20,698 bases of DNA from a virus. The DNA lies in the UHGV virus genome UHGV-1782828; one strand, given 5' to 3'. Shown piece after piece: positions 1-3,000 of the stretch. How positions within the stretch are numbered: the first letter of the stretch is position 1; every line of letters starts with the position of its first letter. Position numbers: made by a program.

Positions 1-3000
1 CGCCCCTGCTGTTTCGTAAACGCCGCCTGTGCATCCGATTTAGCTTTTGCCAGACTGCTGTCTGCCAGCGAGTTAAAACTCTGTAACGCATCCGCCTTCT
101 GACCAGAACCGAGAGCTGCAACATCCTGTAGCCCGGCAACATACTTATCTGCCTGCGATACCTGCCCCCGTGTGGTTGTGTCAATCTGCCCGGTTACCTG
201 ATCACTCTGGTTCGCATTCATTACCGCGTTAAAGCGACCACTGGACGGGTCAACACCGGACTGAGCAAGATTACCCGCCAGCTCCTTCCGTGCTTCGCCA
301 AACTGTTTCTGATACCCCAGATTTGTGGTGCCAGCAATATTGTCGTACTGCTGCTCACTGTTCAGGTCATCGACCTTTTCCATGAAGTTATCTTCAGCCG
401 GGCGGAGGATTTTTTGATAATCCTGCCACCCTTTCCAGGCCACTTCTTCCTGTGCTATTTGCGCTGCTGTTGGTTTTACTTTGGTATCACCACCGCCTTT
501 ACTTCCACCCATAATGGCCCCCTGGATAACAAAAAACCCTGCCGGAGCAGGGTCAGAATGTGAATTACAATGTTGGTTTAAACACAATGATGAAAACTGT
601 AGCAGTCAGACCGCTATCCTGAACACCATGAAGCCATCCTCATCATCCGGCATTCGCTCAAAGCCCAGACGTTTTCCCAGCCGGATAAATCCCCCCTTGC
701 CGTATGAAATTCGGCCCAGCGCCCGCCAGCCAGGCGGGTTAATGTCTTCACCTCCGGCAGATAACGCTCAACGCTGTTACTCCCCGTGCACACACCCAGT
801 AACACCAGAACATAAGGGATACCATCGTCACTGAGCACAGAACGCAGCACAAGAAAACCATCCGGTGCCTCAAAGCAAAACGCCTGCTTTTTAAGGCAGG
901 CGTCTTTAACTTCATTCATAAATTCAGGGTTGCGGGAATTTCTCACAACACGCTGCATATACCGGAGAATTCTGTCGTCCATTCTCTCACCTGAAACGGG
1001 TGCCATATCGGCTGAACCTCAGCAACCAGTTGACGGGGGCTTTCGTCCCCGTCGCGGTTTTCCTACTGCTTACACTGTAAGAACGCCGCAAACTCCGCTC
1101 CCCACAAATTCAGCCGGAACTCACACAGCGAACCGTGTAACATCCAGATGGTGAAGATTACCGTCATACAAATTGTGACGGTGATGAGCGATTTTTGCGA
1201 CATAGCGCTTGACTCCTTTTACAGAGAGGCGCTAACCTTCTACTTGCTTAAGGTATGATGGTTAGGGCCTCGGGTTAACGTTAAGTTGACTCGGGGCCTT
1301 TCCACATCAGGCCTTCAGGTTCTCCCTCCGGCCATCAGCCGAAAGGCACCCGCGCATAATTTACGGTTTTTACCCTGTACGGGCAATAAAAAACCCGCCA
1401 TCACAGCGGGTAGTAAACGGTTACCGGATACAGTTCAGAATTTCAGGCCAATACCAGCAGTAACCCCGCTCGTGCGCCAGTCACCAGAGCCGGAACCTTC
1501 GTAAGCCACATCCAGTGTAACACTCTCATTCAGGTTAAACTGAGCACCTGCTGCCCACGCAGCAGAGGTTTTTTTAGCGCTGTTACTTTCCGAAAATCCA
1601 CCGGTACTGTTAATGTTGTCCTTAATTTTCAGAGCAGTGGTGACTTTTGCAACCCCCATACCAGCCATTGCATACACACTGATGTAGTCGTTAAACCGCC
1701 ACGAAGGGCCAGCCAACAGACTCCAGTAACTCGCCCTGATATCCGTTCTGGCAGAAGCCGCCGGATTCTTAATATTCCTGGTGTGATCGGCTGGCTGAAC
1801 ATCAATAAATGTCTGTGAGTTAGTCATGGAACGAGTCCATGTAAAAGTGGTTATCACGCCAAAGTGATCCGTTATTTCGTAGCGATACTTAATATTAATA
1901 CCCTGCGGATTTTTGTCTTTTCCTTCATATCCCCTGACTGTGGCATTTTCATATACCCCCAATGAATTAAAGTATTTGTTGTTCACAAAATTATTGAAGG
2001 CCTCCTTGTTATGAGCAGTCGCCTCCTTAACAAAACCCTTCATCCCCGGAAATTGAAAATGGGCATATCCCATAGTTACGGTACTATCTCCAGATGACGC
2101 ATGCGCTGGTACATTTATAAAACCGATCACCAAGACTGTACACACAATCAGCATGAATATGTTACTCATCCAACACCCCACATATAAAATGCCTTACTAA
2201 GACTCTTGATTATAAAGGTACTGTCAAATCAGACAATAGAGATATATTATTTTTGTATTTGTTTATCGCTTTGAATTTTATATTCAATCATACAGTGACG
2301 CATTAATAACTAGAACTTTATCTATATAAGGCCTCCGAATATCCCATGTTGCATTACCAGAATAATGTTCACATGAATATATTTTATTTCCTGTAGCCCC
2401 AGTGGAAGTGGTGTAAATCGGTCGGTCATAAGGTGCACGCTGCCAGTTATAATAACCCACAAGGGCAGGCATAATTGCACATGGATATCCGAGGTCCTTT
2501 TCAAATTTGATATCAACAGGTATTAACTTCGCGTCAAGCAGCATCATTTCGCCGTGATAAATCATCTCACCCGCCGGGTTATACATGGCAATACCATACT
2601 CAGAAGGTGGCGTAACCATGTTTCCGAAAGCATAGACCGTTGTTGTTCCCGGGTTCCCGCCGTTAAATGTATGAAGCCTGAGCGCATGATACCCGTCAAT
2701 ATGCTCATGTGTGTACATGACATTTGACCGGTTCGCTGTTCTGACAAAGAAAAAACAACTTTTGCCTGACGGGATTGATGTTTTAAAAAAATCTTTTTTT
2801 GTTCCGGGAATACCCCCTTTGTTGATCAGACACTGCGGCGTAAAACCCGGGCTTATCCATGTGCTACCATCCGGCTTCATTATGCTCAAACCATACATCA
2901 CTTATCCCCAGAATGTATAAATATATGACCCCATTCCCTGCTCAAGATTCGACCACGTAACGGTATTCCCATTCACTGTGATATTCGGGGCTTTCCGATC

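Follow-up and report, generated by a model that had tools for sequence, protein, structure and literature searches.

A lom gene with its own promoter-like site and intrinsic terminator in the late region of a 933W-like Shiga toxin phage

We examined the lom-type gene of the virus genome UHGV-1782828, whose full 20,698-nt stretch is referred to here as the window. The window is 97% identical over its length to the Shiga toxin (Stx) 2a-converting phage Stx2_EH2011 (LC645443) and 85–92% identical to 933W, VT2-Sakai, and phage 86; judged by these identities, it represents the late/structural part of a 933W-like (Sepvirinae) Stx phage or prophage of Escherichia coli. A first-pass annotation had placed a lom-type gene with its own flanking elements at 1386–2236, and all four elements, the coding sequence, a promoter-like site, a mini-open reading frame (mini-ORF), and a terminator, are present there on the minus strand. 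The gene is co-oriented with the tail genes and lies at the tail-gene end of the late operon, and its orthologue is annotated as lom in related Stx-phage genomes. The gene three positions upstream of lom (3195–4463, minus strand) encodes a Phage_Tail_Tip domain (PF09327, 5.5e-11), which we take to correspond to the C-terminal part of lambda J, and the tail-tip-then-lom gene order is common to lambda (J-lom) and these short-tailed phages.

The lom coding sequence (1435–2169, minus strand) runs from an ATG at 2169–2167 to a TGA stop at 1437–1435 and encodes a protein of 244 residues with the C terminus ...GIGLKF. A GTG at 2181, in frame with lom, is specific to the window, and the relatives all align to the lom ATG. 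The exact protein is found in NCBI as an Ail/Lom family outer membrane beta-barrel protein of Escherichia coli in 42 contigs, with the same gene neighborhood in every contig read. The assignment to the Ail/Lom family, first made by inspection, was borne out by a profile search, in which the protein matched Pfam Ail_Lom (PF06316) with 110 bits against a cut-off of 23 (E 1.7e-31). This match covers residues 87–244 on profile positions 47–199; residues 1–86, comprising the signal peptide, strand 1, and an enlarged loop 1, lie outside it. Among proteins of known structure, sequence matches were obtained to lambda Lom (9wso_C, 8.8e-24), Ail (3qra_A, 1.9e-17), and OmpX (4.7e-11). The NCBIfam model for resistance to complement killing (NF011777) gave 91 bits, below its equivalog cut-off of 258, and the OmpX equivalog model of the same collection gave 66 bits, below its cut-off of 176. 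By these scores, the protein is a member of the Ail/Lom family and not an orthologue of Rck or OmpX. Since it falls below the Rck equivalog cut-off, the serum-resistance function is not transferable, and a role in adhesion or serum resistance would be a family-level extrapolation. The putative signal peptide, read by eye, is encoded at 2098–2169 (minus strand) and has the sequence MSNIFMLIVCTVLVIGFINVPAHA, followed by SS; it carries an AXA cleavage motif and an n-region without Lys or Arg. Both this Sec signal peptide and the C-terminal aromatic residue (Phe, ...GLKF) are read from the sequence, and homology suggests an eight-stranded outer-membrane β-barrel fold.

Upstream of lom, the intergenic region that separates it from the homologue of L0127 (2170–2283, minus strand; guanine-cytosine (GC) content 0.28) holds a σ70 promoter-like site and the 5′ untranslated region (UTR). 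The site (2209–2236, minus strand) consists of a −35 hexamer TTGTCT (2236–2231), a 16-nt spacer, and a −10 hexamer TATAAT (2214–2209), with 10/12 matches to consensus, in agreement with the TATAAT box and plausible −35 box proposed earlier. The −10 hexamer ends 39 nt before the lom ATG, and the predicted transcription start lies near 2202–2204. This is the best score in the interval 1000–3200, and only three sites of at least 10/12, the lom site among them, are found on both strands of the whole 20.7-kb window. The segment 2204–2130, folded in search of a structured 5′ leader such as a thermometer, was no better than shuffles (z = 0.15), and the window allele is devoid of the AGGA-N8-ATG ribosome-binding arrangement seen in other lom alleles.

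Downstream of lom, the clean intrinsic terminator described in the first-pass annotation is found at 1383–1411 (minus strand) as a hairpin, ACCCGC-TGTGATG-GCGGGT, followed by T6ATT. The stem-loop at 1411–1393, ACCCGCTGTGATGGCGGGT, begins 23 nt past the lom stop codon and is followed by TTTTTTATT down to 1384; the 55-nt 3′ region of lom folds with −15.5 kcal/mol (z = −1.6). The hairpin is unchanged in all close alleles, and in allele L038 a T·G pair is replaced by T-A. Non-homologous intrinsic terminators occupy the same relative place after lom in lambda and in the 44%-identical L088, and termination right after lom thus appears as a recurrent property of lom units. The paper on 24B_1, a published "microRNA-size" RNA of phi24B, reported no Rho-independent terminator in the lom-vb_24B_43 spacer, nor in a longer fragment including lom (PMC4426718). 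Despite this negative result, the hairpin and T6 at 1383–1411 (minus strand) are identical in phi24B, and the published search may have been limited to the strand opposite lom.

Expression of an orthologue is documented in the literature. In phi24B, CM18, which is lom, shows strong expression in lysogens and no change after induction, as measured by quantitative PCR (Riley et al., PMC3342100), and according to Veses-Garcia et al., their RNA-seq data fully support lom expression in lysogens (PMC4651098). The phi24B Lom is given as 100% identical to 933W Lom and is consequently 78% identical to the window protein. Lom peptides were also detected in phi24B virion preparations, where the authors classed them as non-structural contaminants, and for lambda, the literature describes lom as expressed in the lysogen and its product as that of a moron. 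Autonomous, induction-independent expression of lom is therefore already published for the 933W/phi24B orthologue. As to the earlier proposal that the window gene is a lysogen-expressed moron, the transcription of a 78%-identical orthologue in lysogens (PMC3342100) speaks for it, but the upstream region of that allele is non-homologous to that of the window. Because the phi24B spacer differs, the published expression validates some promoter in the equivalent spacer and not the window promoter itself; the activity of the latter is a prediction.

The upstream region is indeed the most variable part of the lom locus (2170–2283 in the window). Among 88 fetched loci, representing 31 distinct spacer-plus-protein combinations, six mutually unalignable spacer types precede lom, of 79–126 nt and 20–32% GC. 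The phi24B spacer is identical to the 933W-type spacer, in which the best candidate is TTTAAA-15-TATTAT, with its −10 equally far from the ATG as in the window. The attempt to find a conserved promoter by comparison failed: the spacers of the relatives cannot be aligned, and only the position of TATTAT in the 933W type is shared. Identity to 933W is 93–100% downstream of lom, 50–55% in the spacer, and 80–95% in the upstream genes. Signal peptide and spacer are exchanged together across alleles, and one mature Lom type is found behind two different spacer and signal-peptide types, which argues for recombination at the junction between signal peptide and mature protein. The window-type spacer was seen in LC645443, in a single metagenome contig that matches the window at 99.97% identity, and in a single E. 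coli draft-genome contig retrieved via the exact protein; it had no match in complete E. coli genomes, IMG/VR, or one-genome-per-species contigs. The window-type promoter region is thus an uncommon variant.

We interpret lom as an autonomous transcription unit, a classical moron in the late operon with an Ail/Lom product, and give this reading a probability of about 0.82; it is supported by homology, not by a direct test. Several observations weigh against it. A site of at least 10/12 appeared in 5.6% of dinucleotide-preserving shuffles of the intergenic region (114 nt, 28% GC; P = 0.056), so that the statistics of the site are suggestive and not decisive alone, and among the six spacer types, only that of the window holds a σ70 site of at least 9/12 at 16–18-nt spacing. 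The phi24B/933W allele on which expression was measured carries another sequence upstream of lom, so that the window site stands as a candidate determinant of lom transcription. The two genes upstream of lom are low in GC as well (0.43), and base composition thus fails to set lom apart. The terminator hairpin lies immediately beyond the end of the variable lom cassette, in a conserved backbone that continues into the Hok/Gef gene; it may belong to this hok/sok neighbor as much as to lom. Finally, the single-sequence AlphaFold2 model of the protein had a predicted local distance difference test score (pLDDT) of 36.5 and was unusable.

The first of these observations could suit a gene that rides along as a passenger in the late operon and is reached solely by Q-antiterminated read-through in lytic growth, with the hexamers as a chance product of an AT-rich spacer. 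In keeping with such a passenger, lom and the tail genes share their orientation, the promoter-like site is not kept in the five other intergenic types, and its 10/12 score is attained by chance at the frequency given above. Counted over the whole region, promoter-like sites number 6, versus 4.3 ± 2.2 in shuffles, and show no excess. We nevertheless consider this explanation improbable: in lysogens that have not been induced, expression of the orthologue is already strong, and induction brings no increase, so that a local promoter must lie somewhere in the short spacer. Moreover, each allele keeps a spacer of 79–126 nt and 20–32% GC, in contrast to the tight gene junctions elsewhere in the operon, and three non-homologous terminator versions follow lom.

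The ownership of the terminator bears on a second explanation. A hok/sok-type type I toxin-antitoxin module lies directly downstream of lom (1063–1351), and the terminator might be part of its conserved backbone, insulating the hok mRNA on its upstream side, with lom as a promoter-plus-ORF cassette that recombines before it. The hairpin and the sequence downstream of it are 93–100% conserved, whereas the lom 3′ UTR just before the hairpin occurs in two versions; the Rfam sok-model match starts at 1351, about 30 nt below the T-run, and hok is always found alongside lom in close relatives. Against this stands the finding that lambda lom and L088 lom, without a hok/sok neighbor, each have an unrelated terminator at the same place. 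We regard this arrangement as possible, if somewhat unlikely, and assignment of the terminator to hok/sok and to lom is compatible rather than exclusive.

It is very improbable, in our view, that the window lom promoter is LexA-repressed and SOS-inducible rather than constitutive in lysogens. A LexA-like box, TATTGTCTGATTTGACAGTA, covers the −35 hexamer at 2238–2219, and a second, CTG-N10-CAG, is located at 2153–2134 within the signal-peptide codons. Scored with a rough LexA matrix, both boxes, about 85 bp apart, rank among the three best-scoring 20-mers of the whole window. Their scores of 11.0 and 13.2 bits are, however, at or below that of the weakest genuine site used to build the matrix (12.8; median 21), TTG replaces the critical CTG in the first box, AT richness inflates the scores, the boxes are not conserved in other alleles, and the matrix itself does not derive from a curated source.

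Comparison with known systems places the window gene closest to that of the Traversvirus Stx phages 933W, VT2-Sakai (Sp5, ECs_1236), and phi24B. In these phages, lom likewise follows the tail-tip-fibre gene and two small genes and precedes hok and the L0129 homologue, and it has the same length of 244 residues, the loop-1 insertion, and the identical terminator. The differences from the 933W group reside in the protein (78% identity) and, above all, in the signal peptide, the 5′ UTR, and the entire upstream spacer, which are non-homologous (50–55% DNA identity); the 10/12 σ70 site is present in the window allele only, and AGGA-N8-ATG in the others only. Lambda lom (9wso chain C) also belongs to the Ail/Lom family, lies downstream of a Phage_Tail_Tip-domain gene in the orientation of the tail genes, and has its own intrinsic terminator. 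Its product shares only 35% identity with the window protein and is shorter (206 versus 244 residues), without the ~32 loop-1 residues of the 933W-group proteins and with differences in other loops, and its siphovirus context, J-lom-stf, differs from the short-tailed Sepvirinae context, with no hok/sok downstream. Yersinia Ail, Salmonella Rck and PagC, and E. coli OmpX show sequence similarity over the barrel, but they are chromosomal or plasmid-borne, whereas the window lom is carried by a phage, and its product has a longer loop 1.

The morons of HK97 and HK022, such as HK97 gene 15, are defined as single genes among tail genes, with a promoter upstream, a terminator downstream, and a lower GC content (PMC3594210). 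The window lom resembles them as a single gene among tail genes with a promoter-like site, a terminator, and a lower GC content (0.45, with 0.28 in the spacer and 0.51 in the window). It differs in being fixed in close relatives rather than present or absent, and in a GC dip common to the two upstream genes. Indeed, no presence/absence polymorphism of lom was found among the close relatives, which all carry the gene at this site. Where only distant homologues of the two upstream genes occur (32% identity), they border on a tail-fibre gene, and lom is missing; a downstream terminator and extra low-GC DNA relative to distant relatives, two features of morons, are thus found here. The gene as such is already known: lom is a long-recognized lysogenic-conversion gene of lambdoid and Stx phages.

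If lom is an autonomous unit, its mode of action can be outlined as follows. In the lysogen, the host σ70 RNA polymerase would start at TTGTCT-16-TATAAT and produce a transcript made up of a leader of about 35 nt and lom. Transcription would end at the terminator, the hairpin with its T-run that starts 23 nt after the lom stop codon, and the downstream hok/sok-type module would thereby be shielded from lom transcription. The product would be exported via Sec, as suggested by the AXA-type signal peptide, and inserted by the β-barrel assembly machinery (BAM), to which the C-terminal Phe points, as a small Ail/OmpX-type β-barrel. With a first surface loop larger by about 32 residues than that of lambda Lom, the protein would alter the surface of the lysogen. 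In the lytic cycle, late transcription antiterminated by Q would be expected to continue past the lom terminator. Both the efficiency of the terminator and the topology of the barrel are predictions in this scheme.

The remaining element of the locus is a five-codon mini-ORF, MWGVG (2166–2183, minus strand), made up of an ATG at 2183–2181, the codons TGG GGT GTT GGA, and a TGA at 2168–2166. The earlier description of an ORF that starts at 2183 and ends on the lom start codon is correct in sequence: the TGA overlaps the lom ATG as ATGA, and a TAAGG lies 8 nt upstream of the mini-ORF ATG. Since every lom allele starts with ATGA, a frame opened by an upstream ATG in that register always closes at the lom start codon, and the chance of such a mini-ORF was estimated at about 1 in 4. 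It is absent in the 933W type and not conserved across spacer types; another type has an unrelated upstream ORF of 23 codons ending on the lom start, and the remaining types have none ending there. A function as a leader peptide or coupling device is accordingly unsupported, the mini-ORF being at chance level and not conserved, and it is probably fortuitous.

In the hok/sok-type module, the hok ORF (1063–1203, minus strand) encodes 46 residues and matches Pfam HOK_GEF (4e-8) and NCBIfam HokA. The sok match in Rfam (1190–1351, minus strand) is full-length and sub-threshold, with 38.8 bits and an E-value of 7.8e-7; at gathering thresholds, Rfam gave no match in the whole window. The 24B_1 RNA maps exactly to 1276–1295 on the plus strand, antisense to the hok leader, and its predicted promoter boxes, TTGACT and CGCTAACCT, are found at 1209–1214 and 1230–1238 on the same strand. 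From this position, 24B_1 looks like a fragment of a Sok-type antitoxin RNA. Neither 24B_1 nor lom appears in the paper on hokW-sokW (PMC8621323). Two terminator-like hairpins with T-runs were observed on the plus strand, one at 1548–1565 in the 3′ part of the lom coding sequence (CTGCTGCCCACGCAGCAG followed by AGGTTTTTTT) and the other at 1031–1054 beside the L0129 homologue; they might stop antisense or Sok-type transcripts.

Farther along the window, the cor superinfection-exclusion lipoprotein gene (6411–6635, minus strand) encodes a product 100% identical to Cor of Stx2 phage 86. Together with a 48-residue ORF beside it (6211–6357, minus strand), it occupies a low-GC gap between tail genes (6211–6641), and the other two promoter-like sites of at least 10/12 in the window fall in the cor region, one at 6439 on the minus strand (TTGACA-16-AATAAT) and one at 6578 on the plus strand. 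The region 6211–6641 looks like a second moron-like insert. A 181-residue protein (6648–7193, minus strand) has an N-terminal Gp38_N tail-fibre-adhesin domain (1e-19), and its phage 86 counterpart is annotated as "tail fiber adhesin" in a region noted there as O86-specific. A tblastn search of the window with phage 86 Bor did not find bor, which in phage 86 lies between Rz and the small terminase gene, a place that corresponds approximately to the gap 18798–19020 of the window.

Beyond correct annotation, the significance of these findings is small, since the gene, the kind of gene, and the phage group are all known already. The variation of the lom 5′ end nonetheless raises the idea that the promoter spacer, leader, and signal peptide form a swappable 5′ module, and that the level of Lom and the signals that govern it vary by Stx-phage lineage. 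Six versions lie between the conserved end of the upstream gene and the invariant terminator, and the rare window version carries weak LexA-like boxes. We hold this idea only tentatively and consider it unlikely. If true, the regulation of lom, and not its presence, would be the variable trait among lysogens of Shiga toxin-producing E. coli (STEC). The hypervariable 5′ end of lom, set against its fixed terminator, may offer a handle for asking whether Lom levels differ between STEC lineages.

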